Positions 23,985 to 42,310 of a stretch of DNA of 64,000 nt are shown in pieces. Made by a program: the position numbers and the translations under genes. This DNA comes from a virus (lineage: Duplodnaviria; Caudoviricetes): the IMG/VR virus record IMGVR_UViG_3300027804_002812, positions 64,001-128,000 of that record; one strand, 5' to 3'. The notes under the pieces are model-generated. The model was not told the DNA's origin. It saw only the letters and a list, made by a program, of their open reading frames with translations, and did no database searches. How positions within the stretch are numbered: position 1 is the stretch's first letter; each line of letters starts with the position of its first letter.

Positions 23985-26774
23985 CTAGATACTCTTAATT
24001 TTTTCTTCCCAACCTTCTTCCGCCAAATCATACATATAGAAAGGGCTTAATCCTCTTCTTTCCCAATACTTTAATTCTGCTTCAGTAATATCCAATACAT
24101 CTTCTTTTAATCTGTCTTGGTCTCCATCCGCTAAAGGTTGTCCGTTAATCAACTCACATTGTGATGTTGTAAAAATTCCTCTCTTTTCAGGTTCATTAAC
24201 AATTAAACCGTTTCTAACTTCTTCCTGAAATACAACCATAAGAGGTTCAATTCTTTTATTAAATGTAACAATTGCTCTTGGTACATTGTAATCACCAGTC
24301 AGGTCAGGATTATTATCAAGAATGTCTTTATCTAACATATAACAATTAACCACAACGCCATCTTTAACTTCTAAAGATTTAGGGTCTTGAAGTTTATTTG
24401 CTGCGTTCAAATCTTTTAGTTGTTTCACAGTCATTTTCTGAACATCTCCTTGAGAAGCCTTTGTACCGTTATTAACATACATAATTACGTCTCCCAAGTT
24501 TACATTTAGTCCTTCCTGAATAGCAAGTTCCATGTGTGCCATACGAGACATACTATTACCCGACTTAGTTTTGGTTGTTAATCTTTTCTTGTATTCATCA
24601 ATACCCAACTTCACTTTTGCTCTCTGTGCGATTTTGGAAAGAGGAATCTTCTTGTCATAAATCTTCTGAAGATATTCATAGTAATATTCAACAAATTCTT
24701 TACCATCACCTTTAAGTAACATCTTAATACCTTTATCCAAAAACTCTTCAATATAGATTGGAAGTTTCTTTGATTTGATACTATTACCCGTAAGTTTGAT
24801 TTTCCCCTTCGCATCCATAACTGCGTAGTTTTTACGAGCTAAGTTAATACAGGACGGCCACACACCATCAGTATCCAATGCCATCTCACCCCTCATGAAT
24901 ATGTCATTATATTCCGCAACGTCCGCTTCAGGACCATAATATTCTTTACCCAACTTCACTTTCCAATTCAATCCACGTCCAACATAAACTCTGTTTTTAG
25001 CATCTTCAGGTGTGGAAAAGTTCACACCGTCAGTATCCATTACCAATGGAACATAACCTTTCGCCATGAAGAATTTAATCATTTGACGTAGATATTGTCT
25101 ACCTGTACAAGTAATTTGTTCACCCATATACATGTCACCCCAAGCATAAACCTGAGGAGCGGATAAAGCGCCGAACATGGAGTTAATAAAGATTTTAATT
25201 GGCAATTGTTTGTTACCATAGGACTCTGACTTTTTACGGTCGGTTTCATAGTATTGTTCTGCCAAGTTTTTGTATTTGATACGAGTATCACGGAACCACT
25301 TCAACATACCCTTCATTGCACCCGTAACATCACAGTCAGGAAATACATCGTGTACCAACTGAATTGATGGGTATAGAGACGAGAAGTCAAGTTTGAGTAC
25401 GTCTTTACTATATCCCACCTTAAGTAGTCTGGATAGACCACCAACGAAGTCAGTTTTAGATTCTTTGGCAGGAATTGCAATCTTATGTTTATAAGACCAC
25501 GCCATCATCAACATTTTCCACAATGTTGCAGTACCCATAGTGGATACTCTCTCATAAGTGGTTGGAATCATCGCCGCCAACAAGAATGAACCTTGGTTAA
25601 ATTCTTGGTCAACTTTCAAGGTTTCGTCCAAGTCATCGTCAAGATATCTTTCAACCAAGTTGTCACCTGTCACCTTGAGATAAACATCAGACCTCTCATT
25701 ACAAATTTCATCTATCTTGGGATCTTGTCCAACTTTACGATAGTTACCGTTTTGAGTATTCAGCCAAAACTCTTCCTTCTTAGCATAAAATGGACCAATG
25801 TCCAAGTGATCAATGTAAACTCGGTCAGGTGCTTCAGCGTTAATATATTGTGTAATATACTTCAAACCCGCCGACTTGATACTCGAGTTGATTGCCTGTG
25901 CTCTACGAACCGCATGAATAATATCAATAACATTGTAACCCCAAATAGAAGTTTGAGTATATGACTCAACCTCATTTGCAAGTTTCAACATACTTTCTTT
26001 TCTTGTGAAAGAATGGTCGGGATGTAATGAACGACAAATCTTCTTGGGGTCAATACCCAAGATTTTACATCGTTCGAATATCCAATGCCAGTCGAAGTTT
26101 GCCGAATTGTACCCACCAATAATACTTGGTTTCAATTCATTAATAATACTAAAAAACTCTATGATGGCACCTCGTTCTTGAGATTCATCAATACATTCAA
26201 TTACTTTGTGGTATCCTTTGTTTGTCTTAATTCCAATCATGAATATACGACCGTCTTTTGGTTCCAAGGCGGTCGTTTCTAAGTCAAATACAAGGCGGGT
26301 AACTTGATTATAATCTTCAAACCCTTTGAACAATCTTTTTTCTTTTTGTACCAAGTATTGTTCGACAGGAGAAAGAATCGTAATTTTTTCTTTTGTTCTT
26401 TCTCCCCATGGGTCACATCCACCTTCTCTAAAAAATTGTACAAGTTCACGGTATCCCTTTAGAGATTTAACCATAAAGGTCATACCCTTTTCTAATCTTG
26501 GATTACCGTGTGTCTCGAGTTTATCAATCATGATACCATGTTTGGTCATGGCTTCTTTCTGTGCGGCTTTGGAACCACCATAAAAGTTAATGTCTCGTAA
26601 ATCACCAACCCACGCAAATGGAGTAAACGTATCCTTACGGATTTCTTTACCTTTGCCTGGAATTTCTTTGATTTTGTAAATGGAGTTGGAAGCGTAGTCG
26701 AACTCAATGGCGACTATAAATTCTTCGGGGTCGTTTCCGTGTAGGAACGATTCAATTTCTTTTTCTGTAAACAT
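23985..26774 (-). CDS. polB: Family B DNA polymerase with 3'-5' exonuclease
   Basis: 929 aa; FDLETT (ExoI), GYNSANFDW (ExoII), LDFSSLYPSI (A), KIFINSMFG (B), MDTDG (C); no intein. Confidence 0.95.
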   Translation of the reverse strand: MFTEKEIESFLHGNDPEEFIVAIEFDYASNSIYKIKEIPGKGKEIRKDTFTPFAWVGDLRDINFYGGSKAAQKEAMTKHGIMIDKLETHGNPRLEKGMTFMVKSLKGYRELVQFFREGGCDPWGERTKEKITILSPVEQYLVQKEKRLFKGFEDYNQVTRLVFDLETTALEPKDGRIFMIGIKTNKGYHKVIECIDESQERGAIIEFFSIINELKPSIIGGYNSANFDWHWIFERCKILGIDPKKICRSLHPDHSFTRKESMLKLANEVESYTQTSIWGYNVIDIIHAVRRAQAINSSIKSAGLKYITQYINAEAPDRVYIDHLDIGPFYAKKEEFWLNTQNGNYRKVGQDPKIDEICNERSDVYLKVTGDNLVERYLDDDLDETLKVDQEFNQGSFLLAAMIPTTYERVSTMGTATLWKMLMMAWSYKHKIAIPAKESKTDFVGGLSRLLKVGYSKDVLKLDFSSLYPSIQLVHDVFPDCDVTGAMKGMLKWFRDTRIKYKNLAEQYYETDRKKSESYGNKQLPIKIFINSMFGALSAPQVYAWGDMYMGEQITCTGRQYLRQMIKFFMAKGYVPLVMDTDGVNFSTPEDAKNRVYVGRGLNWKVKLGKEYYGPEADVAEYNDIFMRGEMALDTDGVWPSCINLARKNYAVMDAKGKIKLTGNSIKSKKLPIYIEEFLDKGIKMLLKGDGKEFVEYYYEYLQKIYDKKIPLSKIAQRAKVKLGIDEYKKRLTTKTKSGNSMSRMAHMELAIQEGLNVNLGDVIMYVNNGTKASQGDVQKMTVKQLKDLNAANKLQDPKSLEVKDGVVVNCYMLDKDILDNNPDLTGDYNVPRAIVTFNKRIEPLMVVFQEEVRNGLIVNEPEKRGIFTTSQCELINGQPLADGDQDRLKEDVLDITEAELKYWERRGLSPFYMYDLAEEGWEEKIKSI

Positions 26775-26869: not shown

Positions 26870-27247
26870 TTAGCAACATGCAGTTTCAGAAATAAAACTG
26901 TCTTGTATATTAATAAAAAGTTCTTCTCTGATTGGAAGAATCAAACTACCTTCGTCATTTCTGATTAGGAATTGACCCTGATATCTTCCAGGAGTATTTG
27001 TGTCTCTTGAGGTGAACTTGAAATAAATATAGTATTCGGGAGCGGCTCCCAAAGGTAAAATTAAATTAACGATTTCACAAGGTGCTGAAACAATCTTGGG
27101 TATTCCTGTTTCCACATCAATCATGGTAAAAAATATAGTCGAGACCTCAAGGTCTTCCATGAGTTGTTGGTAACCTGCTCTTCCGTCTTTTACCACCTGC
27201 ATTTTTAACACAGGGAGAGTTGCGTTCTTTTTAATATAAAATTCCAT
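26870..27247 (-). CDS. BppU-like (baseplate upper protein N-terminal, Ig-like) virion protein
   Basis: 125 aa; FYIKKNATLP..., YFKFTSRDTNTPGRYQGQFLI...LILP pattern; TATTTAT 4 nt upstream. Confidence 0.55.
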   Translation of the reverse strand: MEFYIKKNATLPVLKMQVVKDGRAGYQQLMEDLEVSTIFFTMIDVETGIPKIVSAPCEIVNLILPLGAAPEYYIYFKFTSRDTNTPGRYQGQFLIRNDEGSLILPIREELFINIQDSFISETACC

Positions 27248-27263
27248 AACAATAAATATACTG

Positions 27264-28940
27264 TTATGACTCTTTACGAAGCCCCCTATCGTAATGTTCG
27301 AATCTATCGTGTTCTGTTGGAGTTAGTAGTAATAATCCAGGGTTTAATTCCCCCTTTTTTACAAGTTGATACATGTGAGACATCCAAGTTTGTTCAAATG
27401 GGTGTGCCCACGTTGTATCTAAAAACATTTTTTGATTTCCTGTTCTTGAAACAATTTGAGGCCAGTTACAGTAGTAGACTTCACCTTTGGTGTAAGGTAT
27501 ACCTTTATAAGATAAAACCGCATGGAATTCTGTCTTAGGGGCATTAGGATCTAATCCAATTTCAGGTAGTCTAGGTTTGTCAGGCCAAAATTCGGTTCTT
27601 ATGTGTTGAGGCACATTATACCATGACCACTGAGTACCGTTATCTCCATAAAACTCACTGTAATTTAACTTTAAGAAATCTAAATTTTCTTTTTTAATAA
27701 TTTCTAAAGACTTACTGTATAAGTTAGGGGCATATCTATTGAATCCATTTCTACAAACCTTACCTTCATTTGGATAGAAAAACATATCATCTTCAAAAAA
27801 CAAGTAATAATCCAAATCAGTTTCATTTTGGAAATGTTCTGCTACCCATTGTCTTCCCCCACATATCCCTAAATTATCTTTTTTAATATGTTCAAATCCA
27901 AACTCATTACAAATTTCCAAGTATTCTTCGGTAGTTGACAAATCACTTGAATTGTCTAATAAAAATTTACTAGTTTTGTTGAGATAATCTTTATCGTACG
28001 CTAACATAGAATCAATCAATGTCTTGAATTGTTTTGGACTATTGAATGTGATAACATACAGACCTACTTTGTTTGTATCTAAATTATTTACAACTTGTAC
28101 AGAACTTTCATTTTTTACTTTCAGGGTATCATTTTTTAAGTCTTCGAAGAATTTACCAACTAATCCATTTCCTTCGATTTCAAAATAATTGAATAGGTCT
28201 GAATGTTTATAGCACATGATACTGAATATCGATTCTTCAGTACCCATGTATCCTTCTTCTAAAGTACTTTTTAACAATCCATAATAAATTCCATTAACAT
28301 CACTAATTGTGTGTTTCGGGCCACCAAAAAATCCACCTCGAGCGACTTTAGTTACTTTATTACCGGCAATGGAATTTAACTTGTTATATTCAAATCCATG
28401 AATTTCTCTTTCCGCATCATAAGGGAAACAAATGAATGAAAATTTTGAAATGTATTTAGATAAGTTGTTCAAAACTTTATCGTGAGTAAAATAGCCTGGA
28501 TGCACTGTATTAGTTAATCCACCATCAATCCAAAACATATACTCCGAATTAAATTGGTCCATGATTTTGGCATCATGTAACAAAAACACTTTTGACATGA
28601 CCAAAGGATTATAGTTTTCCAAACGACCTTGTGTAGATTCCTTTAACCACCCCGACAAATTATACCATTCGGGGTTTGTTCTAATTTTTTGAATTAACGG
28701 AAAAAATTCAGAGTTAGTAAACCAACTAAGTGGTCGGGTGATGAATTGAGTATTTTCAGTATTTCTTCTTTCAAACACAAAAGTTTTTAATTCTTCATCT
28801 CCGAACACTATTAGATTTTCTTCAACCTTTAATAGTTGTTCGAATTTATCCAAATAGTGCTGATAAGACCTACTCCAACCTTCAGTTAGTTCTCCACGAC
28901 CAATGTCCCAAATACCTGTGACTAAAGTTATATTACTCAT
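27264..28940 (-). CDS. HtrL/YibB-like glycosyltransferase fused to a GT-A (GT2-like) domain
   Basis: 558 aa; ITLVTGIWDIGRG, FWIDGG, GGFFGG, GTEESIF; second domain GLYVITFNSP...NLGICGGRQ...FFEDDMF. Confidence 0.65.
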   Translation of the reverse strand: MSNITLVTGIWDIGRGELTEGWSRSYQHYLDKFEQLLKVEENLIVFGDEELKTFVFERRNTENTQFITRPLSWFTNSEFFPLIQKIRTNPEWYNLSGWLKESTQGRLENYNPLVMSKVFLLHDAKIMDQFNSEYMFWIDGGLTNTVHPGYFTHDKVLNNLSKYISKFSFICFPYDAEREIHGFEYNKLNSIAGNKVTKVARGGFFGGPKHTISDVNGIYYGLLKSTLEEGYMGTEESIFSIMCYKHSDLFNYFEIEGNGLVGKFFEDLKNDTLKVKNESSVQVVNNLDTNKVGLYVITFNSPKQFKTLIDSMLAYDKDYLNKTSKFLLDNSSDLSTTEEYLEICNEFGFEHIKKDNLGICGGRQWVAEHFQNETDLDYYLFFEDDMFFYPNEGKVCRNGFNRYAPNLYSKSLEIIKKENLDFLKLNYSEFYGDNGTQWSWYNVPQHIRTEFWPDKPRLPEIGLDPNAPKTEFHAVLSYKGIPYTKGEVYYCNWPQIVSRTGNQKMFLDTTWAHPFEQTWMSHMYQLVKKGELNPGLLLLTPTEHDRFEHYDRGLRKES

Positions 28941-29814
28941 ATATTTTGTTAAATTCTTCTAATATTTTATAAAAACTTTTATTTTGTTGGAATAATTCTT
29001 CCGACGTTCCTCTTGGAGCATTATCTCTACACCACCAAATATCAAAATGTTTTCTTTCAAAAAGTTCTTTATGATTATAATACATAAGGGTCATTATATG
29101 TTCTTCATGTGGAATACCTTTGTCTTCAGATATAATGTTTTGAATATAGGTTTCAAACAAAGTAACCATTTCGTCCCACTTACTTTTGTGACCACCAAAA
29201 AGCCCTCCAATAATATGTAATCCTCTATCGTATTCTTTATACCATTTTCTGTCTACAGTACCTGACCAAAAGTTTCTATCGTTTTCTTTTCCGATAATTA
29301 AAAACTTATCTTTGGTTTCTTCAATAACATTTTTCAAAAATTCATTATTAAATAAGGAACTTTCATAATATCTTCTAACTAAACCATCGTGAGTCAAATA
29401 TTTTAATGGAATCAAACCGCAATGAGATAAACCAGCGTCAATCCAATAATAATAGTCGTATGATTTATCTTCGTTCCACCACCAATGAAATTTTGAATAT
29501 TGAATTTCTACACATCTATCAGACTTTTTGGTTTCGTCAATATTCTTATATTGATTAATTAAATCTCTGAATTTTGTTTGTGAAATATCAAATGTTTGAA
29601 ATTTTAATTTCTCGGGGGAAATTTGATTTTCTTCATAAAAGAATTTAATTAGTGAATCTAATTCTCTATCTGAAGTGTAACACAAAAAATCTGCGTCTGT
29701 CATCTTTAGTAATGATAACAAACTATATCTATAATGACCTCCCCTGTTTGTTCTTCCACCAAACTCAGTTCCATATAAGTCACTATATATCGAAGTTATA
29801 AATTTAACTGACAT
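28933..29814 (-). CDS. HtrL-like glycosyltransferase (second paralog)
   Basis: 293 aa; KFITSIYSD, YYWIDAGLSH, IIGGLFGG, HEEHIMT. Confidence 0.55.
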   Translation of the reverse strand: MSVKFITSIYSDLYGTEFGGRTNRGGHYRYSLLSLLKMTDADFLCYTSDRELDSLIKFFYEENQISPEKLKFQTFDISQTKFRDLINQYKNIDETKKSDRCVEIQYSKFHWWWNEDKSYDYYYWIDAGLSHCGLIPLKYLTHDGLVRRYYESSLFNNEFLKNVIEETKDKFLIIGKENDRNFWSGTVDRKWYKEYDRGLHIIGGLFGGHKSKWDEMVTLFETYIQNIISEDKGIPHEEHIMTLMYYNHKELFERKHFDIWWCRDNAPRGTSEELFQQNKSFYKILEEFNKIYE

Positions 29815-30550
29815 AATAAAATTTATGATGTTCGTTTTTATCTTTCATTTCTTGGACTTTATACTGGTCCATAAATTCATTAGGTATTTTTCTTGGTGTC
29901 CACCTGTTCCAATTATATGTTTGCATATACCAATTGTTGTACATACCTTCTGATATGTTTGAGTAATTCGATTTCTGTGGAGCAATTGGTAATATTGGCG
30001 AATAACTTTGATGTTTTTGAACTATAAACTGATAGGTGTAATCGTCTAATGCAAAGTAATATTCTCCACTTGTAGTAAACGCGGTTTGCGAAATATCAAA
30101 AATTTTGTCATAAATTGACTCATCATAAATCACCATGTTAGCACCGTAAATCCCTCTACATTCTGACGGAGCATCAGGAGTATTTGTCATATCAAACAAT
30201 AACTCATACTTGTCACTAACATTGATAGGTCTATTTTGTGTTGGTCCCAAATTAAACATTGCGAACTCCAAATCAGAACAAGTTTCTTCGATTTGTTCCA
30301 ATAAATCTTTCGCGTATGGCATAAACCCGCAATCGTCTTCAATTAACATCACTCTTGGATATTTTCTTTCTTGAGCAATTTTAATAATTTCGAATGTGGA
30401 TTTGGTAATACCCATATATGAGTTTGTATCTATTGCTGAAAACCTTTCAAAATCCCAACCAATGTATTCCATTTCTTTGGTTATTGATTCCATTCTATCA
30501 GGTCTTCTATCCAAGTTTATGACAAACTTTGGTATTTCTGAAAACTTCAT
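29804..30550 (-). CDS. GT25-like glycosyltransferase
   Basis: 248 aa; FVINLDRRPDRM...FERFSAID...LIEDD. Confidence 0.75.
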   Translation of the reverse strand: MKFSEIPKFVINLDRRPDRMESITKEMEYIGWDFERFSAIDTNSYMGITKSTFEIIKIAQERKYPRVMLIEDDCGFMPYAKDLLEQIEETCSDLEFAMFNLGPTQNRPINVSDKYELLFDMTNTPDAPSECRGIYGANMVIYDESIYDKIFDISQTAFTTSGEYYFALDDYTYQFIVQKHQSYSPILPIAPQKSNYSNISEGMYNNWYMQTYNWNRWTPRKIPNEFMDQYKVQEMKDKNEHHKFYYVS

Positions 30551-31812
30551 TAACTAACGTGATTGTGATTTAATTGTCCGGTTAATCTATCACACCAACC
30601 TTTAGATTCTGAGTGAGGCCATACCACCCAATATGATGGTAGTACTGTTGTAGGAAATTCTCTCCATACTTTACAGTATTTGTCAGGGTCTTTGAAAAAT
30701 CCATTAATTTCATTTTTGTCGGCATCTTTTCTGAAAATGGTCTCATCATTTGGTCCGTGGAAGGCAACAACCCAAAAATCATAATCCTTTTCAGGAACAC
30801 TTGAATATCCAACATCAATACAATGTTTATAGATAGTTGAGAAACTATTTTTCCATTCTTCCTCATCTTCAATTAGAGGACTTGGTGGATATTTTTTGTC
30901 TATACAATGTTGGTCAACTGCTCTTTTTTCAAATAGTAAACCGGAATATTTTTCATATTCTCTGAGTGTTCTGACTGTACCAAACCCATAAGGTCCGTCA
31001 TGACCTTCTTGAGTTTCACCATCCATACCAAATAGTTTTCTATTTGTTAAGTGAGAATGTTTGTTTTTGTCTCCCCACGTTTTATCGTCGTCCCATTGTT
31101 TGGTTCTACCTTTACGAGTATATTCATGATAGACAACAGGAATGTGTGGGTGGAACAAATCATAACCCCAAGTATATGCTCTTGCCGCAATAGAAATTTC
31201 TTCTCCGTGAAAATAGTATTCTGGGTTGTGTTGTACCTCTGTTGAGAATTGTCCGAGTGTAAAACAGAAGTGAGCAGAATAGAATCTTGCGGTAACAGGT
31301 TTTGTCATCTCTCTCCAACCTGGTATTGTCTCAGGTAAAAAGAATACTGCACCTTCGGGAATGAATCTATCAAATGCCATTCTCCAAGCGTCTTGTGCTC
31401 GACCTGCGGGATCGTTTTCAGGGTCAAATGAAGGAACATAACCTGTTAACAAAGGTTTCTTATATCCATCCTTTTGTAATCCTTTAATCATTTTGATTAA
31501 TACATCATCCCAGTCCTTGATGAATCTCATGTGAGAATCAATTTGAAGTGTGTATGTTTCACCATCATAAAGTTGTTGTGTCAGATTTCTAGCGAAACAA
31601 ACTCCCTTAGATTCCTGATATGGAATATCCAAGATTTTGAATCGTTTATCTTTTCTATACTCATCCAAATTATCGAATCCGTCAGATTCACTATATTGTC
31701 TTGCAATACCGAAAACCAAATTATTTGGTTTTTTTGCATTTGCAATCATGTCTTTAAGGGTTGGAACCAACTGAGGGTCTCTGTAAGAAGCAATCTGAAT
31801 AAAAATTTTCAT
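30550..31812 (-). CDS. GT60-family (Skp1 Gnt1/TcOGNT-like) polypeptide alpha-GlcNAc/HexNAc transferase with C-terminal accessory domain
   Basis: IFIQIASYRD, GVCFAR, TLQIDSHMRF (DxH), LTGY, SAHFCF, YFHGEEISIAARAYTWGYDLFHP, VVYHEY; start reassigned to ATG 31812 (MKIFIQ) because track start 31869 runs through a terminator. Confidence 0.8.
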   Translation of the reverse strand: MKIFIQIASYRDPQLVPTLKDMIANAKKPNNLVFGIARQYSESDGFDNLDEYRKDKRFKILDIPYQESKGVCFARNLTQQLYDGETYTLQIDSHMRFIKDWDDVLIKMIKGLQKDGYKKPLLTGYVPSFDPENDPAGRAQDAWRMAFDRFIPEGAVFFLPETIPGWREMTKPVTARFYSAHFCFTLGQFSTEVQHNPEYYFHGEEISIAARAYTWGYDLFHPHIPVVYHEYTRKGRTKQWDDDKTWGDKNKHSHLTNRKLFGMDGETQEGHDGPYGFGTVRTLREYEKYSGLLFEKRAVDQHCIDKKYPPSPLIEDEEEWKNSFSTIYKHCIDVGYSSVPEKDYDFWVVAFHGPNDETIFRKDADKNEINGFFKDPDKYCKVWREFPTTVLPSYWVVWPHSESKGWCDRLTGQLNHNHVS

Positions 31813-31836
31813 TTGATTTATATTTTTACTATAAAA

Positions 31837-31866
31837 TAAAAAAACCCTCCGATAAGTGGAGGGTTT
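31837..31866 (-). terminator. Rho-independent terminator between PT-repeat gene block and GT block
   Basis: AAACCCTCC-N7-GGAGGGTTT followed on minus strand by TTTTATTTT. Confidence 0.8.
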
Positions 31867-31890
31867 CAAGCGTATAATTATGAATTATTT

Positions 31891-32895
31891 TTAATCTGTA
31901 ATTGTTACTACAAGGGAATCCGATGCCTGTAATGGCACCGCACTTAGAGTCGTACTTATGTTTACTGGAGGAGATATCGGTGTTGGGCCAGATATTGTTA
32001 TTCCATTTAGAACAACTGTAAAACTTATTGATGTATTACCCGTAACATTAACTTGTGGATTATTATTTGTAAGTCCGTGGTCGGCCGATAGAGTTTGACC
32101 TGATGACACAGGGAAACTTCCTGTTGGATTAGTTAATGTGATAGATCCAACGTTATCGAAGAAGCTCGTAAATGCTGCGTTTGATGTCGTGTTATTTACA
32201 AATCTTGTGTTATAAACTTTTGTTGCGGTCGGAGTTGGTGTTGGAGTTGTTGTTGTAGTGTTGGTAGGAGTAACAGTTGGAGTACTTGTTGGAGTTGATG
32301 TTGCAGTTGGTGTAAGTCCCACACTCGCTGTTGGAGTTGCGGTTGGAGTTGCGGTAGATGTGTTAGTTGGTGTTGAAGTTGTTGTTTGGGTTAGAGTGGT
32401 TGTTGTTGTTGGAGTTGGTGTTGAAGTGGTTGTTGCTGTTGGAGTTGCGGTTGGTGTTGCCGTAGATGTGTTAGTTGGTGTTGAAGTTGTTGTTTGAGTT
32501 GGAGTTTGTGTGGTTGTAACACTTGGAGTTGGTGTAGAGGTTTCAGTATTCGTAGGCGTTGGAGTTGGAGTACCGGTTTGTGTGGTTGTAACACTTGGAG
32601 TTGGAGTATTAGTCGCAGTATTAGTCGGTGTTACTGTTGGAGATGGTGTTAGAGTAGGAGATGGTGTTGGAGTGTTTGTTGCCGAAATAGGAGGAAACGC
32701 TCCTTGATTGACCAATGATATGACTGACTTAAATGCCGGAGCAACAGTATAGGTACCATCAATAACCCATATATTTTTAGTTTGGTTTTGTAATAATTCA
32801 ACTTGATAATCCCAAAGTGAATCGTCACATCTTCTGTAACTGAAGTTAACTATTGTTGAACCTGTGTTCGTGAGTATATATTTACTACATGCCAT
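31891..32895 (-). CDS. Pro/Thr-repeat (mucin-like) putative virion protein
   Basis: 334 aa; MAC N-terminal domain, ~150-aa TPTP/TTTSTPT tract, C-terminal beta domain; TATTTAT upstream. Confidence 0.7.
32221..32685 (-). repeat. Thr/Pro coding tandem repeat
   Basis: Includes exact 35-nt direct repeat at 32354-32388 and 32462-32496. Confidence 0.85.
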
Positions 32896-32978
32896 TGTTT
32901 TTCTTATTTATCTTATAAATACTACAAAGTTGTACAATTTCCCATAGTTTATCATTAAAAAAAAAAATTGTTCAATTT

Positions 32979-33542
32979 TCAACAAATTCCTTTGTTTATT
33001 ATTAAAGTTCCACTTAATTGAACAAAAATCGCACCATCAGAAACCGTAAAGAAGTTACCGATTGGTGGGATAGTTAACTCTCTATTTCCATAAACTCTGT
33101 CGCCAACCTCAAGTTCATGAAAAGGTATTGTTGTAAATACCGTGACATTTGCAGGATTTGCGATTTGATTTACCGATTGACAAACATTTTGATACCATCC
33201 ACCGGCGCGTAAATTTCTTTCATATACCGCAGACGGAGTAACGGATGGTGTTGGAGAGTAAGTCGGTGTTGGAGTTTGTGTAATTGATGTTGGGGTTATA
33301 CTTACGGTTGGAGTTACTGATGGAGTGATAGACGGAGTTGGTGTAGCCGTTGGACATAATCCTATGTTTGTAATGTCCAACGGCCCACTATAACTTTCTT
33401 TTACCAAATCTTCTGCACAAACATACTCTGTGTTTAATGGAGATATGGTTCCGACACTTATAATACTAGTACAACCAGTATATCGATAATATCCATTTTC
33501 AACACTATTGTAGTTTATTATTTGGTAATAGTTACATGCCAT
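32979..33542 (-). CDS. Pro/Thr-repeat (mucin-like) putative virion protein
   Basis: 187 aa; MAC N-terminus, CPTATPTPSITPSVTPT... ~40-aa tract, Cys-containing flanking domains. Confidence 0.65.
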   Translation of the reverse strand: MACNYYQIINYNSVENGYYRYTGCTSIISVGTISPLNTEYVCAEDLVKESYSGPLDITNIGLCPTATPTPSITPSVTPTVSITPTSITQTPTPTYSPTPSVTPSAVYERNLRAGGWYQNVCQSVNQIANPANVTVFTTIPFHELEVGDRVYGNRELTIPPIGNFFTVSDGAIFVQLSGTLIINKGIC

Positions 33543-33543
33543 A

Positions 33544-35928
33544 TTATACTTGTGATATTGTTACAATAACTGATGGTGTTGCAGGTTTTGCGTATGGTGT
33601 TGTTTGTACTGGTTCACCTAACAACTCATAGGTAATATCTGCAGAGGCCCAAACAATTTCAAGATAATCGTTAGCATTCATTGATTCCGCAATATTCCAA
33701 GCTGCAACAAGTTTACCGTAAGCACCTTGTTTTGCAACTTGCATTTCCGTATTTGAGTTTGCTAAATCAACACCATTCTTTCTAAACCAAATCGCCACTT
33801 CATCGGTATTACTTGAGGTTTTACTTAGTTGAGCTGAGAATTGAAGGTTATAAACCCCTGTGTTTAATACCACAAATCTTGTACTTGCACTTAATACAAC
33901 ACCGCTAGACAACGTAGTAGTGTTTGCACTCATAACTTGCGGTGTATTAACAGTGCTTAATGGTTGTGTTCCACTATCAAAAAACGCCCCGTAAGATTTT
34001 GTTGTTCCTGAAGGAGATACTCCTGAAGACCCACTAGTTCCTGAAGAACCTGATGTACCTGTAGAACCGCTAGTTCCTGATGAACCAGATGTGCCTGTAG
34101 AACCTGAACTTCCTGAAGAACCGCTAGTTCCTGATGTTCCAGAACTTCCTGAAGAACCGCTAGTTCCTGATGTTCCACTAGATCCAGAAGTCCCACTAGT
34201 TCCTGATGTTCCATTTGTTCCTGATGTTCCAGAACTTCCTGAAGAACCGCTAGTTCCTGATGTTCCAGAACTTCCTGAAGAACCGCTAGTTCCTGATGTT
34301 CCAGAAGTACCACTTGATCCGTCAGTTCCCGAACTACCGCTAGTTCCTGATGTGCCAGAAGAACCATCACCACCAGCGGCCCCCTCTAAATTCACTAACC
34401 ACGTAGAATAACTTCCGGATCCAATAATGCCAGTAACATTAACAACCATATTACCATTTGATGGATTGTAACTCACTACCGTACCAATCATATGGTTTGA
34501 AAGGTCATAGGCAATAATAACGTCTTGTGCAATACTATATCCTAAATTAGTTCCAACTACAAAAGTTCCAGTACTACCTGTTTGAATTGGTAATAAAGTT
34601 GACGATGTTGTTCGATATAAGTCTCCTGCGAGACCGCTAGAACCTGACGTTCCACTTGTACCAGAAGATCCATTAGAACCTGATGTTCCACTTGTTCCTG
34701 ATGAACCAGAAGTACCTGACGTTCCATTTGTACCTGAAGTACCAGAAGTTCCTGACGTTCCATTTGTACCGCTAGTTCCACTCGATCCTGCACCACCAAT
34801 CACTCCAATTGTTCCACCTGTTATTCCAATCGTAATATTATCTGGTCTTACACCTCCAATTTTTGATATAGTCGCGGTCCCAAGATATGCTGTTTCTTGA
34901 ATACTATTGTCACCAAATTTAATTGTAGACCCACTTTGTGGTATAGTTATTCCTGATGGATTTATTATGAAAGATAATGAACCTTGATATTCATTTGGTT
35001 TTGTAGCATAAAATCTGAATTCAGTTGGAGTACTTGTCGCACTGAAGGTACCTAAAGAATACATATCCATAAACGTGTGAGGTAAATCCCCTGGAATACC
35101 GAAACCTGATTCAGTTGTCCAACCTACACCAGCAAATCTTGCAATTGGCCCTACTTTGGTATTTGTTGGAAATTGCGCGGTACCTCCCGCATGTCGACCA
35201 CCAAATTGACTAAATCGTGTGTCTCCATAACTATCGTTAACAATTCTACTTACTTGGTTATCGTGACCAGTCACGTGAATCATTCCACCAGGATTCACAG
35301 GTGGAGCAGAATACCCCCCATCATTTCCTATAATTTCAAAAACCGAAGCATTATTTGGATTTTGGTACGAAGACGTGATAAAAACTTGTCCATTGGGATC
35401 AACTCTAAAAACACCGAGATCCACTGTCTGTCCACTTATTCCTTCGACAATCAAACCACCTGATTGAACCCTCAAAAAATTAAATAAATTACTCAAGGTT
35501 ACGGTATTACCTGAAGGAGAGTCAGGTAATAGTTTCAAACTGGCATTCCCTAAAATAACATCACTCCAAGGATGTTCAACTGAACCCAAAGAATTACCGC
35601 TAAAAAAAGGTAAGAAATTTCCATTAAGAAACATATCTCCATTTCCTGGAATTATGAGTAAATTTTCATTTGTTATACCTGAAATTGTGTTACCCGATAA
35701 AACTATTGCATTTGTATAAATAGATTTTAAGGAATTCAATAAGTCCCCTATTTGGTAAGTATTGTCAGTATCAGGAATCAAATTTTGAACCATAACCCCA
35801 AAAGGGGAACTTTTCCATAAATCCTGAATGTTCATATTATAGGTTACACCACTAGCAACAATTGGAATTAACGAAGTGTTGGTTGATGCTGTTAAGTTAG
35901 GTAATCCTGATATTGGTAAATTAGGCAT
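33544..35928 (-). CDS. Collagen-like (Gly-Ser/Thr-X) fibre with C1q/BclA-like C-terminal domain
   Basis: 794 aa; MPNLPISGLP start, LIPDTDNTYQIGD/LGSVEHPWSDVI fibre motifs, two GXY tracts of GTS/GSS/GTN, C-term YGAF...TGVYNLQFSAQL...WFRKNG...DYLEIVW. Confidence 0.7.
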   Translation of the reverse strand: MPNLPISGLPNLTASTNTSLIPIVASGVTYNMNIQDLWKSSPFGVMVQNLIPDTDNTYQIGDLLNSLKSIYTNAIVLSGNTISGITNENLLIIPGNGDMFLNGNFLPFFSGNSLGSVEHPWSDVILGNASLKLLPDSPSGNTVTLSNLFNFLRVQSGGLIVEGISGQTVDLGVFRVDPNGQVFITSSYQNPNNASVFEIIGNDGGYSAPPVNPGGMIHVTGHDNQVSRIVNDSYGDTRFSQFGGRHAGGTAQFPTNTKVGPIARFAGVGWTTESGFGIPGDLPHTFMDMYSLGTFSATSTPTEFRFYATKPNEYQGSLSFIINPSGITIPQSGSTIKFGDNSIQETAYLGTATISKIGGVRPDNITIGITGGTIGVIGGAGSSGTSGTNGTSGTSGTSGTNGTSGTSGSSGTSGTSGSNGSSGTSGTSGSSGLAGDLYRTTSSTLLPIQTGSTGTFVVGTNLGYSIAQDVIIAYDLSNHMIGTVVSYNPSNGNMVVNVTGIIGSGSYSTWLVNLEGAAGGDGSSGTSGTSGSSGTDGSSGTSGTSGTSGSSGSSGTSGTSGSSGSSGTSGTNGTSGTSGTSGSSGTSGTSGSSGSSGTSGTSGSSGSSGSTGTSGSSGTSGSTGTSGSSGTSGSSGVSPSGTTKSYGAFFDSGTQPLSTVNTPQVMSANTTTLSSGVVLSASTRFVVLNTGVYNLQFSAQLSKTSSNTDEVAIWFRKNGVDLANSNTEMQVAKQGAYGKLVAAWNIAESMNANDYLEIVWASADITYELLGEPVQTTPYAKPATPSVIVTISQV
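34021..34370 (-). repeat. Gly-X-Y (GTS/GSS) coding tandem repeat, tract 2
   Basis: 36-nt unit agaacttcctgaagaaccgctagttcctgatgttcc at 34141, 34231, 34267 (near copy 34105). Confidence 0.85.
34636..34788 (-). repeat. Gly-X-Y coding tandem repeat, tract 1
   Basis: GSSGTSGTNGTSGTSGTSGTNG... Confidence 0.8.
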
Positions 35929-35955
35929 TTTCTTTTTATTTTATAAATATTGTTT

Positions 35956-38391
35956 TTATGTCACAATTATGTTGAACCCATCTTCTTGTTGTATTGTAAA
36001 ATAATCTTCTTGTGCTAAAAAGATAAATCCAGTTGGAGTTGGAGTTTGTGTAAATGTCGGTGTAGGAGTTGGTGTTCCAGTGTTAGTAGGTGTTACGGTT
36101 GGTGTTGGAGTTTTGGTTGCGGTTTGAGTATTAGTTTGGGTTACAGAAGGAGTATTAGTTGGAGTTGTAGTTGATGTTGGAGTTTTGGTTGCAGTTTGAG
36201 TATTAGTTGGGGTTTGGGTATTAGTTGGGGTTACAGAAGGAGTATTAGTTGGAGTTGGTGTAGATGTTTCAGTTGCGGTTGGAGTTTGTCCAACACTTGC
36301 TGTTGGGGTAACTGTTGACGTTTGAGTCACAGTTTGAGAAGGTGTCTGAGTTGGAGTTTCTGTATTTGTTGGAGTTACTGTTGGTGTTGGAGTTTGTGTT
36401 TCTGTAGCGGTCGGAGTTTGTCCAACACTAGCGGTTGGAGTCACACTTGCAGTTTGACTTGGAGTTTGTGTTGGAGTTTGTGTATTTGTTGGAGTTGGAG
36501 TTGTACTCGAAGTTGGGGTCGGACTCGGAAGAATAACAAAACAATCAGGACATTTTGGATCTAATAATCCATATCTTGTTTTTAACAATTTGAAATTATG
36601 CCAAACTTGTGACGCATTCAACGGTTCAACATACATTCTAAACGCACTGACATCACCAATCATACTACCACCAAAATATTCTTCTAACTTAATATGTGTG
36701 GTTAGTCCTGAGTATATTGTATTATCTAAATCGTCAGTTGTTAAACATTCGGGGTCTTGTTGATACGTAATCCCACTAATAGATTCTGGACATCCTCCCG
36801 AGAATGTTAAATTATCTTTAAGACCTTGAGTACCTCCACCCAAAGAAATATTATATCCAACACCAATTTGTTTTTCTCGTTCAACATCTAACAATCTTGG
36901 AATAATTTCTTCAAAGTTCTCGGCAACCATAAACAACTTGCCGTTTACGAATATTTTGAGAGTTCCTAATCTATATTTTTTTTCTTCGGTCCAATTATCA
37001 TTGAATGTAACAATTTCAGTTGTTGCCGGATCGTAAGGTAACTCATGAGTCAGTGGAGGTTCAATCAAACTAACACTATTGTTTGCTGGTGTTGCAGTAT
37101 AAATGGTATCAACAAGAAGACCCAACCCTCCCTTCTCATAAAGGTCACACGTATCTAACCATTGATTTCTTTGAAAGACAGCATCAATTTGAACCCAATG
37201 TTCCAACTGAATATATGGAGTATTTTTACAATCGTCAAAAATTCCTCGTGTTGAACACCATTCTGTAACTGATGTTCCTGTGTGATAAGTTAATCCTGTT
37301 TGACAAGTTCCTGTTGTTTCACAACCTCCAGTTATTGTATAGGTTTTTATACATAATCTCGGATTACCACTATCACCACTTAACCTTAATGAAAGTCCAT
37401 TTGATACTCCATCATATAAAGGATCTTTTTCAGCATATTTGGCGGTTACGCTACAATTACAAGGACAACCGCAATTACAATTCGTTGAAGTACCTCCTGA
37501 TATTTGATAAACTTCTAAACAAGTCGACGCAGTATTTGCTGAACTTGAACATCCACAAGTGTGCATACAAGTTAATCCTGACGTAACTCTTGTATATCCT
37601 GTATCTTGTTTAGGTGACCCATCGGCATAATGGTAGAATTTGTTTTCCGCTCTCGAACCCATATAAAAGAACGTACCTTTATTATTAGGGTATCGATTGT
37701 TCAGTCCTACACTTGTATCTCCTGTCCATCGGTATCTTAACATGAACTCCGCAGTCCATCCTAAAGGAACTCTCTGTGGAAAAATTTGATAATCATATCC
37801 AGGTATTTTATAAAACCCTTGAAAAAACCCACCATTTAGCCGAGCAAAATATCCTACCGCACCACCATCAGTTGCATAGTTCAAATCGTAACTATAAGAA
37901 TCATCATTCCATAGTCGGTTTTGTGTTGTAGTAAATCCTGTGATAGGATGAAGTTTCATTCTCCTATCGTATTTGTATCGACTATATTTGTCTGTATTGT
38001 TTGTGTAAAGCCCTGTAGTTATTTGTATTGTCTCACCTGACATTTTTTTAACCAAGCCATTATCAATACCGGTCAAACCAACATCACATAAGTCAGTAAC
38101 CTTTGGACAAAAGTTAGGGTCAATGTCATCAGGATTCCAATAATTTTCAGAAACAATTACGTCATTATCAAAAGTACATGAACCTGATTGGCATATCGTT
38201 GTACCCGTACTATTGAAATCAAATCTAAATGGCATTCTATTTCCATCGACTTCACCTATTAATAATGGTGAAAAAATTACCTCTTGGTCATAGTCCTTCT
38301 CGTCTGAAGCCAAACAGATATCGGTAATTTCGTTGACAGGTTTAATACCCCAACGTCTAAAATTATACTGATTAATATTTTGATATGCCAT
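35956..38391 (-). CDS. LamG/ConA-like lectin-fold protein with Cys-rich insert and C-terminal Pro/Thr tract
   Basis: 811 aa; [11 protein letters not shown] and [27 protein letters not shown] (LamG-type signature); CMHTCGC...[10 protein letters not shown]; ~165-aa PT tract; ends [21 protein letters not shown]. Confidence 0.65.
36031..36530 (-). repeat. Thr/Pro coding tandem repeat
   Basis: [17 protein letters not shown]..., [13 protein letters not shown] twice. Confidence 0.85.
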
Positions 38392-38400
38392 AAACTAATG

Positions 38401-38427
38401 ATAAATACCTTATGTCATAGTATTTAT
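38401..38427. promoter_or_regulatory. Back-to-back TATTTAT motifs (divergent late-promoter-like site)
   Basis: ATAAATAC-N11-GTATTTAT between divergent genes starting 38391 (-) and 38444 (+). Confidence 0.6.
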
Positions 38428-41089: not shown

Positions 41090-42310
41090 ATGTCAAAAAT
41101 TAAAGTTTTAGTTGTCCCTTCTGACCGATCTGGTGTTGGTAAATTCCGTTCGGTCGATCCACACATTTTTCTTCAAAATCAATATCCCGATGAGTTTCAC
41201 GTAGACATTGTCTATGAACCACCATACGAGGATATGAATTTTTGGACTCAATACCAAATAGTTGCTTACCATAGAAGTATTGGATCTGATTTTGATAAGG
41301 CAAACAGGTTAATCCAAATGTTAAACTCTTTAGGAGTCGTAACCGTTTGCGATATTGACGATTATTGGATGCCAGGTAAAGAACATCCTATTCACGATAT
41401 CATTCGAGTTAATAAAATTAACGAAAAGATTGTTGCCAACCTTAAGGTCTCTAAATTTGTAACAACCACTACTGAAATATTCGCCGACGAAATACGGAAA
41501 TACAATAAAAACGTTATTGTATTTCCGAACGCCATTAATCCAAACGAAGCTCAATTCAAAGAGAAAACTGAAGAATCGGACAAAGTTAGAATTGGATGGT
41601 TAGGTGGTTCATCTCACTTACATGATATTCAATTATTAGATTCAGGGTTTTCCAAACTATTACATCTCAAAGATAAAGTACAATATGTATTGTGTGGGTT
41701 TGACACTAGAGGAACTGTAACTGAAATCAATGCCCAAACAGGTGAACAAACAAAAAGAAATATTTTGCCATCAGAGACTGTATGGGCAAGATATGAAGAA
41801 ATTTTCACACAAAATTATAAAATAGTTTCAGAAGGATACAAAAATCATCTTCTAAAATATAACCAAGAAGAATACCTTGGTGATAGTGGAGAATCGTATC
41901 TCCGAGTTTGGACAAAACCAGTTACAGGTTACGCTAAAAACTATTCTAAATTTGACGTTTCCTTGTCTCCTATCAAAAACACAATGTTCAATAGAATGAA
42001 ATCACAACTCAAAGTAATTGAGGCTGGTTTCTATAAAAAAGCATTAATTGCTTCAAACATCGGACCTTACACTATTGATTTGAAACATTGCTTGGATAAC
42101 GGAAATTTTGTAGATGGAAATGCGATTTTAGTTAATGAGGCTAGAAATCATGCGGATTGGGCAAAATTCATCGAAAAATTAGTTAAGAACCCAAATCTCA
42201 TTAAGGATATGGGTGAAAGGTTGTATGAAACAGTAAAAGACAAATATGACTTGAATAACGTCACTAAGGATAGAAAACAATTTTATATAGATATTGCCAA
42301 TAAATCATGA
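41090..42310 (+). CDS. GT-B fold (GT4-like) glycosyltransferase
   Basis: 406 aa; DIDDYW, FPNAI, RIGWLGGSSHLHD, FDVSLSP...FNRMKSQLKVIEAG. Confidence 0.75.
   Translation: MSKIKVLVVPSDRSGVGKFRSVDPHIFLQNQYPDEFHVDIVYEPPYEDMNFWTQYQIVAYHRSIGSDFDKANRLIQMLNSLGVVTVCDIDDYWMPGKEHPIHDIIRVNKINEKIVANLKVSKFVTTTTEIFADEIRKYNKNVIVFPNAINPNEAQFKEKTEESDKVRIGWLGGSSHLHDIQLLDSGFSKLLHLKDKVQYVLCGFDTRGTVTEINAQTGEQTKRNILPSETVWARYEEIFTQNYKIVSEGYKNHLLKYNQEEYLGDSGESYLRVWTKPVTGYAKNYSKFDVSLSPIKNTMFNRMKSQLKVIEAGFYKKALIASNIGPYTIDLKHCLDNGNFVDGNAILVNEARNHADWAKFIEKLVKNPNLIKDMGERLYETVKDKYDLNNVTKDRKQFYIDIANKS

Follow-up and report, generated by a model that had tools for sequence, protein, structure and literature searches.

The 64-kb window analysed here comprises bases 64001–128000 of a single viral contig of 326,291 bp (IMG/VR record IMGVR_UViG_3300027804_002812), and its positions 27264–38391 encode a GT60-family glycosyltransferase (GT) together with proteins that carry long Thr/Pro-rich tracts. 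Judging from the sequence and context of these genes, it appears reasonably likely that late, stalk-like proteins of the phage receive O-linked sugars from a soluble, phage-encoded pathway in the cytoplasm, and the phage probably sugar-coats its own particle. As the window also encodes a tail sheath, a tail tube and a baseplate hub, the phage is a jumbo myovirus. Near letter-for-letter copies of the stretch occur in freshwater metagenomes from 12 studies, and a DNA-level search of a phage isolate collection found no close isolate for the window. An earlier note on this DNA had described a co-oriented block at these coordinates, and eight open reading frames (ORFs), all on the minus strand, indeed occupy exactly this interval. 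It had counted four Ser/Thr-dense proteins among the products, a count borne out by the composition of the tracts and by a collagen profile match. The genes for these candidate substrates, with lengths in amino acids (aa), and for the GT60 enzyme are:

35956–38391, minus strand: 811-aa protein with a conserved N-terminal body of 612 residues and, after it, a Thr/Pro tract of 182 residues (nucleotides 36013–36558)
33544–35928, minus strand: 794-aa collagen-like fibre protein (PF01391, E 6.6e-23; tail-fibre PHROGs)
32979–33542, minus strand: 187-aa protein with a small Cys-containing N-terminal module, a 53-residue Pro/Thr tract and a C-terminal module
31891–32895, minus strand: 334-aa protein in which a Thr/Pro tract of 170 residues (T 81, P 31) lies between an N-terminal and a C-terminal module
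30550–31815, minus strand: GT60-family glycosyltransferase of 421 aa, with a GT-A domain (residues ~1–325) and an extra β domain (~326–415)

The GT60 enzyme and its operon

By its sequence the enzyme is a bona fide member of the PF11397/GT60 family. The profile match (E 1.2e-66) reaches 226 bits, where the cut-off is 21, and covers profile positions 2–44 and 95–351, the phage family phrog_24687 is matched with an E-value of 2.5e-163, and the motifs IASYRD, QIDSH and GEE are all present. Across 42 homologues, D93 and H95 (the DxH of QIDSH), E205/E206 (GEE) and H230 are invariant. The ORF as listed has 439 aa and begins with a TTG at 31869, inside a terminator hairpin; since this start would read through the hairpin, and homologues of 415–424 aa start at the equivalent of the ATG at 31815, we take that ATG (M19) as the likely real start, giving 421 aa.

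A structural model built on 42 homologues (pLDDT, predicted local distance difference test, 95.4) recovers Dictyostelium Gnt1 (Q8T1C6, E 1.2e-24), which adds N-acetylglucosamine (GlcNAc) to hydroxyproline of Skp1, as its best match in a fold search of reviewed (Swiss-Prot) proteins, and every further match is a GT27 polypeptide N-acetylgalactosamine (GalNAc) transferase, of the family that initiates mucin-type O-glycosylation in animals and Toxoplasma. The best 45 solved PDB structures that match the model are likewise all polypeptide GalNAc-transferases (Foldseek E ~1e-9), and a PDB sequence search with the protein (E <= 1) gave no match. Both the assignment to GT60, for which the earlier note had called for a profile check, and the kinship that it had asserted with GT27 polypeptide GalNAc-transferases are thereby upheld. 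With GT27 the phage enzyme shares its nearest solved structures and a DxH-type metal site, and the acceptors of GT27 enzymes are Thr/Pro-rich polypeptides. Unlike those enzymes, however, it is not a member of that family (a sequence match is absent, and the similarity is one of fold only, with a template-modelling score of ~0.5 and 10–15% identity) and it lacks a membrane anchor; its C-terminal domain of ~90 residues was not identified as a β-trefoil or as a ricin-type lectin domain.

Protist GT60 polypeptide α-GlcNAc transferases, such as those of Dictyostelium and Trypanosoma cruzi, start mucin-type glycans, and their acceptors are mucin-like. The phage enzyme resembles Gnt1 and the protist GT60 proteins in its full-length family match, its GT-A fold and its DxH motif; like Gnt1 it is predicted to be soluble and cytoplasmic, and the Thr/Pro-repeat proteins that adjoin its gene resemble the mucin-like acceptors generally known from the protist systems. 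It differs from Gnt1, to which it is 21% identical, in its extra C-terminal β domain, and from the protist enzymes in lying in a bacterial-virus operon with HtrL-type and GT25-like genes. The model and its fold neighbours suggest that the phage GT60 probably transfers an N-acetylhexosamine (HexNAc) from a UDP-sugar to polypeptide.

Three further enzyme genes follow:

29804–30550, minus strand: GT25-like protein of 248 aa, whose start overlaps the stop of the GT60 gene
28933–29814, minus strand: weak HtrL-like paralogue of 293 aa, overlapping both neighbouring genes
27264–28940, minus strand: 558-aa fusion of an HtrL_YibB domain (residues 3–257) and a second domain of ~270 residues

The successive overlaps of the GT60, GT25-like, 293-aa and 558-aa genes, by 1–11 bases each, indicate that the four enzyme genes form one operon. 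The earlier note had named one GT25-like enzyme and two HtrL-like GTs here. The GT25-like protein does match PF01755 above the cut-off (31.8 bits against 24, E 1.7e-7), and the match is confined to its N-terminal 41 residues (7–47, aligned to profile positions 3–43 of 199). Of the HtrL-like pair, the 558-aa protein is well founded (PF09612, E 2.9e-21, residues 3–257 against profile positions 2–256 of 267); as its score falls below the TIGR02192 equivalog cut-off, it is best described as an HtrL family member rather than a YibB orthologue, and a PDB sequence search with it gave no match. It is also the most constant partner of GT60, being found in most GT60 loci. The 293-aa protein qualifies as a weak paralogue only: over 133 residues it shares 23% identity with the HtrL domain in the 558-aa fusion (BLASTP 1e-4), and a Pfam scan of it gave no hit. 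An NCBIfam match of this protein to AcrID1 (22.9 bits, cut-off 30) was treated as chance.

Ser/Thr-dense neighbours and the TATTTAT motif

At the DNA level, the tracts in the 811-, 187- and 334-aa proteins consist of tandem repeats that are imperfect. At 53–182 residues, with 62–74% Pro+Thr+Ser and variable length among homologues, they have the properties by which mucin-type (Pro/Thr/Ser) domains are recognized; their proline content is 18–21%. The non-repeat parts of all three proteins are conserved in relatives, whereas the tracts vary widely in length. In the 811-aa protein, whose tract contains 74 Thr, 34 Pro and 13 Ser, the N-terminal body is 44–96% identical among relatives and the total length of family members ranges from 659 to 1785 aa. 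Homologues of the 187-aa protein in relatives are 42–94% identical. The 334-aa gene lies directly upstream of the enzyme set, and this arrangement next to GT60 is kept in most close relatives.

The LamG domain that the earlier note ascribed to the 811-aa protein did not fare as well, and is best treated as a lead. Laminin_G_3 is carried by neighbours of this protein in a language-model resource (Atlas); the corresponding PF13385 profile matches neither the window protein (0/1) nor its homologues, save one of 15 at E 0.008. A fold model of the N-terminal body from a 15-sequence alignment reached a pLDDT of 37.8, too poor for a fold search, and a PDB profile search with this body gave no match.

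The 794-aa protein contains two runs of G-(S/T)-(S/T) triplets (nucleotides 34633–34788 and 33988–34365), in which the X and Y positions of the collagen repeat are almost only Ser, Thr or Asn, with no Pro, and it ends in a domain of ~150 aa that recurs in other Pro/Thr loci. Very many freshwater metagenome contigs match the G-S/T-S collagen-type repeats (window 33838–35010), where depth spikes to 50–100 times that of the flanks, implying that such repeats are widespread in freshwater communities.

Upstream of three of these four genes we found a promoter-like motif, as the earlier note had claimed, and the two gene sets are separated by a hairpin:

38401–38407, minus strand: TATTTAT promoter-like motif of the 811-aa gene
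35943–35949, minus strand: TATTTAT of the 794-aa gene
32915–32921, minus strand: TATTTAT of the 334-aa gene
31841–31867, minus strand: intrinsic terminator-like hairpin of 10 pairs followed by a T-run, between the 334-aa gene and GT60

The motif lies 10–26 bases upstream of these genes; the 187-aa gene, which starts 1 nucleotide past the end of the 794-aa gene, is without a motif of its own. Genome-wide, 76 of 374 upstream regions contain TATTTAT in sense orientation; the antisense count is 25, and shuffled upstream regions give 12.2 ± 3.2. The motif also precedes the sheath gene, the tube gene and two Pro/Thr-tract genes elsewhere in the genome. It is thus a genuine promoter-like signal common to structural genes, and its presence before both the sheath and tube genes and the Ser/Thr-dense genes makes a late, structural role for the latter plausible. 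In addition, no block protein has a hydrophobic segment (maximum Kyte-Doolittle mean over 19 residues, 1.5), which fits enzyme action in the cytoplasm during assembly. In a single metatranscriptome run, short identical contigs fall in both substrate and enzyme genes; they carry neither strand nor level information and might stem from DNA carry-over, and are not used here as evidence of expression.

Directly beyond the block lies one more gene with the motif, and the domain that it encodes has relatives in longer proteins:

26870–27247, minus strand: stand-alone 125-aa domain, with TATTTAT at 27252–27258
L107:15530–21235, L111:14995–16425, L156:8916–10694 and L158:7721–10567: fusions of the 125-aa domain in relatives

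In this phage the domain stands alone and ends in Cys-Cys. In the relatives it forms the N-terminus of long Pro/Thr-tract proteins, to which it is joined through a Pro-Cys-Cys junction, and which have varied distal domains. The earlier note had closed the block with a late BppU-like gene. The late motif is there, 5 bases upstream, but the BppU label remains unconfirmed: the lead comes from a single Atlas language-model cluster, 12% of whose members have BppU_N, and neither Pfam (PF10651; 9 homologues, E <= 10) nor PDB profiles produced a match. The next large gene after the block is in fact that for DNA polymerase B (23985–26774). Outside the window, the same genome encodes five more Pro/Thr-tract proteins of 243–1064 aa (150091–151338 and 295388–303238), which consist of small Cys-rich modules and Pro/Thr linkers, often start with M-A-C and in two cases are preceded by TATTTAT.

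Association of GT60 with Pro/Thr tracts

The genomic link between GT60 and Pro/Thr tracts is non-random but not obligatory, and it recurs in clades whose enzymes are only 36–46% identical. Within the clade of the window enzyme, sampled through 80 IMG/VR loci with GT60 proteins 84–97% identical to it, Pro/Thr-tract ORFs directly precede GT60 on the same strand in practically all loci that include upstream sequence; in the cluster at 80% identity that holds the window enzyme, Pro/Thr-tract ORFs lie within 5 kb in 60 of the 62 loci with enough flank. In some relatives Pro/Thr proteins flank the enzyme cassette on both sides. When two other GT60 clades were added, with 108 further loci, the cross-clade sample comprised 30 evaluable clusters at 80% identity, and a Pro/Thr ORF lies within 5 kb of GT60 in 16–17 of these. 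In two divergent loci (L235 and L275, GT60 36–37% identical) the GT60 gene is situated between Pro/Thr proteins with Cys-rich N-terminal modules.

The reverse test points the same way. Among viral IMG/VR loci picked only for the peptide repeat (TP)5, a GT60 gene was found in 8 of 120, as against 0 of 120 picked for (EP)5 (Fisher p = 0.007), and four of these eight GT60 genes are only 26–37% identical to the window enzyme. At the level of whole genomes, tracts coding for TPTPTPT occur in all five GT60-positive genomes examined (3 in the phage itself, 16 in XacN1, 16 in Xoo-sp13, 6 in RAS14 and 1 in the IMG/VR genome G001), with zero for a reversed-pattern control; they are absent from the jumbo phages Atu_ph07, SCTP-2, RaK2, Bacillus phage G and phiKZ (2.05 Mb in total), which also lack PF11397. 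The co-occurrence on which the earlier note had staked its proposal is therefore supported as a tendency (60/62 loci, 8/120 against 0/120, 5/5 against 0/5) and not as a rule. Its stricter formulation, an initiator-plus-substrate module, is retained only as to the link itself, given that about half of the cross-clade clusters lack a Pro/Thr gene nearby and a terminator separates the two gene sets.

Other arrangements were also encountered. A GT60 clade represented by loci L159–L177 (e.g. L162:8721–11287) has two tandem GT60 paralogues, ~43–50% identical to the window enzyme, with no Pro/Thr gene nearby. Near the cassette of a 329-kb relative (L002:815–4711, minus strand) is encoded a 1298-aa protein that consists nearly throughout of acidic Pro-Glu-Val repeats of the PEEPDVPLE type; Pro/Thr tracts are missing at this locus.

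The Xanthomonas phages XacN1 and Xoo-sp13 share the core cassette of GT60, 293-aa and 558-aa genes, with identities of 46–49%, 28–29% and 40–41%, respectively. XacN1 has at least two virion protein bands that are Schiff-positive, and its authors proposed ORF334 as a possible cause of the staining (PMC5852040). ORF334 is the homologue of the window GT60. XacN1 resembles the window phage in its core cassette (GT60 46%, HtrL fusion 41% identical) and in its many TP-tract proteins: TP tracts occur in a 3313-aa protein, whose gene has the baseplate wedge genes on one side and the cassette on the other, and in large number in a 2823-aa protein. It differs in the addition of a carbamoyltransferase to the cassette and in that its Pro/Thr proteins are mostly encoded elsewhere in the genome. 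XacN1 also has six tandem fibre-like paralogues, ORF232–237 (AP018399.1, 124048–133104; L208), with a common N-terminal domain, a TP linker of 60–90 residues and variable C-termini; no homologue of a tail fibre is reported in the XacN1 paper (PMC5852040), and on sequence these ORFs look like tail-fibre candidates. The relation between GT60 and Pro/Thr tracts is accordingly directly testable in a cultured relative whose virions stain for carbohydrate.

Acceptors, alternatives and implications

In the pathway that we favour, GT60 would place the first HexNAc from a UDP-sugar on hydroxyl groups, probably those in the Thr/Pro tracts of the late proteins encoded next to it, and perhaps those of the collagen-like fibre with its G-S/T-S repeats. 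Extension of the glycan would fall to the products of the three translationally coupled genes, through up to four further GT-type domains (GT25-like, HtrL-like, HtrL and the second domain of the 558-aa protein). The modified proteins would serve as stalk-like virion appendages, whose sugars might stiffen the linkers and shield them from proteases. Acceptor, donor sugar, linkage, virion location and benefit are here inferred from the genes and their relatives. An evident heavy investment of this genome in glycans is seen in its large glycan islands. One of these, a co-directional island at window positions 41090–62664, includes GT2, GT4, GT10 and GT11 domains, a UDP-sugar dehydrogenase, epimerases, an aminotransferase, an acetyltransferase and two methyltransferases, interspersed with a dUTPase-like gene and a PolB-type exonuclease gene; as the earlier note proposed, it may supply sugars to the pathway.

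Several observations weigh against such a pathway. In 13–14 of the 30 cross-clade GT60 clusters there is no Pro/Thr-tract gene inside 5 kb; a relative with a 79%-identical GT60 (L002) has only a collagen-like gene near its cassette; and GT60 was found in the fetched stretch of only 8 of the 120 (TP)5 loci, so that most such tracts have no GT60 close by. The comparison of genomes is small (five against five), three of the positives being related Xanthomonadaceae phages and the controls not being matched for host. The enzyme operon lacks the TATTTAT motif, which together with the intervening terminator makes the substrate and enzyme sets separate transcription units and leaves their co-regulation unsupported. 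The virion location of the Pro/Thr proteins is suggested only by the promoter motif, the tail-fibre PHROGs of the collagen-like protein and the fusions in relatives. Finally, Gnt1, the sole characterised GT60 among the fold neighbours, modifies hydroxyproline on a single protein rather than Thr tracts.

Some of these observations would also be expected if the cassette glycosylated other acceptors, such as capsid or tail proteins, further proteins of the phage, or precursors of the host envelope on the inner side of the membrane, with the tracts acting as flexible linkers and their closeness to GT60 reflecting inherited gene order. This agrees with the clusters and viral Pro/Thr loci in which the partner is missing, with the terminator between the gene sets, with cassettes that lie among small non-structural genes (L100, L150 and L162), and with the descriptions of the HtrL/YibB and GT25 families, which point to bacterial lipopolysaccharide loci. 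We nevertheless consider it unlikely, because the excess of GT60 is specific to Pro/Thr tracts (8/120 against 0/120 and 5/5 against 0/5) and recurs at enzyme identities of 26–46%, which inherited order within a single clade cannot explain. The nearest fold relatives of GT60, moreover, all act on polypeptides, and the block has no membrane segments, flippase or polymerase.

A second alternative keeps the pathway and changes the linkage: a phage 2-oxoglutarate (2OG)-Fe(II) oxygenase would hydroxylate tract prolines and GT60 would add GlcNAc to the hydroxyproline, as in Dictyostelium Skp1 and the plant hydroxyproline-rich glycoproteins. That the best fold match is the hydroxyproline-specific Gnt1, and that about a fifth of the tract residues are proline, would suit this linkage, as would the three PF13640-type oxygenases that the genome encodes, of which two score above the cut-off for the family. 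These three prolyl-4-hydroxylase-type genes (312344–321891 of the contig; L086–L088) are ~215 kb away, however, adjoining sugar-nucleotide genes, and one weakly matches a sugar-pathway oxygenase of the FlmC type; the oxygenases could hydroxylate tract proline or could tailor sugars. Other GT60 members act on Ser/Thr. We therefore regard a hydroxyproline linkage as decidedly improbable.

That the cassette instead adds sugars to phage DNA in evasion of restriction is hardly credible: the cassette does adjoin DNA polymerase B here and lies near replication genes in XacN1, and the GT25-like protein marginally matches a PHROG of T-even hydroxymethylcytosine glucosyltransferases (E 0.009), but the only thymidylate synthase of the genome is a canonical one (TIGR03284, 310 bits, cut-off 108), with no second member of this family, which includes the dCMP/dUMP hydroxymethylases, the fold neighbours of GT60 modify proteins, and the link with Pro/Thr tracts would be left unexplained. 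A search of the genome for Tet/JBP gave no match, and gave none in any control genome either, so that absence is not established by it.

O-glycosylation of the phage's own stalk-like proteins has partial precedents. Chloroviruses and mimiviruses glycosylate their own structural proteins with self-encoded machinery, and the Bacillus BclA and Clostridioides BclA3/SgtA systems comprise collagen-like glycoproteins with an adjacent transferase, in which G-x-T repeats carry O-linked HexNAc-based glycans. In all of these, as proposed here, surface fibres of the virus or bacterium itself are glycosylated by soluble enzymes, but the enzyme families and acceptors are different and none combines GT60 with Pro/Thr tracts. 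To our knowledge no phage is known to use mucin-type logic, that is, a dedicated polypeptide HexNAc-transferase acting on long Pro/Thr repeats. In mycobacteriophages, GTs whose genes lie beside those for structural proteins add glycans to the phage's own particle while it is in the cytoplasm (Freeman et al. 2023, via PMC12619734); according to that summary their glycans are on the C-termini of capsid and tail-tube subunits, and it describes no mucin-like tracts or GT60 initiator (PMC12619734). Our search of the literature on GT60/PF11397 in phages and on O-glycosylation in jumbo phages returned nothing relevant beyond the XacN1 and moraphage papers. Self-glycosylation by viruses is hence already known, whereas a GT60 initiator paired with mucin-like Pro/Thr tracts in phages is absent from the literature searched.

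A bolder proposal, close to that of the earlier note, is that widespread jumbo phages of freshwater and of plant pathogens build true mucin-like stalks, bottle-brushes with α-HexNAc on most threonines of the hypervariable tracts. HtrL-, GT25- and GT2-type enzymes would extend these glycans with the help of fucosyltransferase-rich islands that take up a large share of the genome. We put this forward tentatively, and think it somewhat unlikely. If it were true, a bacterial virus would wear a glycocalyx in the style of eukaryotes, and the GT60/GT27 lineage of polypeptide HexNAc-transferases would have a large hidden reservoir in phages.

The more modest pathway of O-glycosylation of late, stalk-like proteins would already, if correct, account for the many Pro/Thr 'linkers' in the appendages of large phages. 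These phages would gain an adjustable coat of glycans, with possible effects on protease resistance, adsorption, aggregation, grazing or antibody recognition. The GT60/GT27 lineage, until now studied chiefly in eukaryotes, would also be extended to viruses of a very abundant group, as GT60 forms 4522 clusters at 50% identity in metagenomes.

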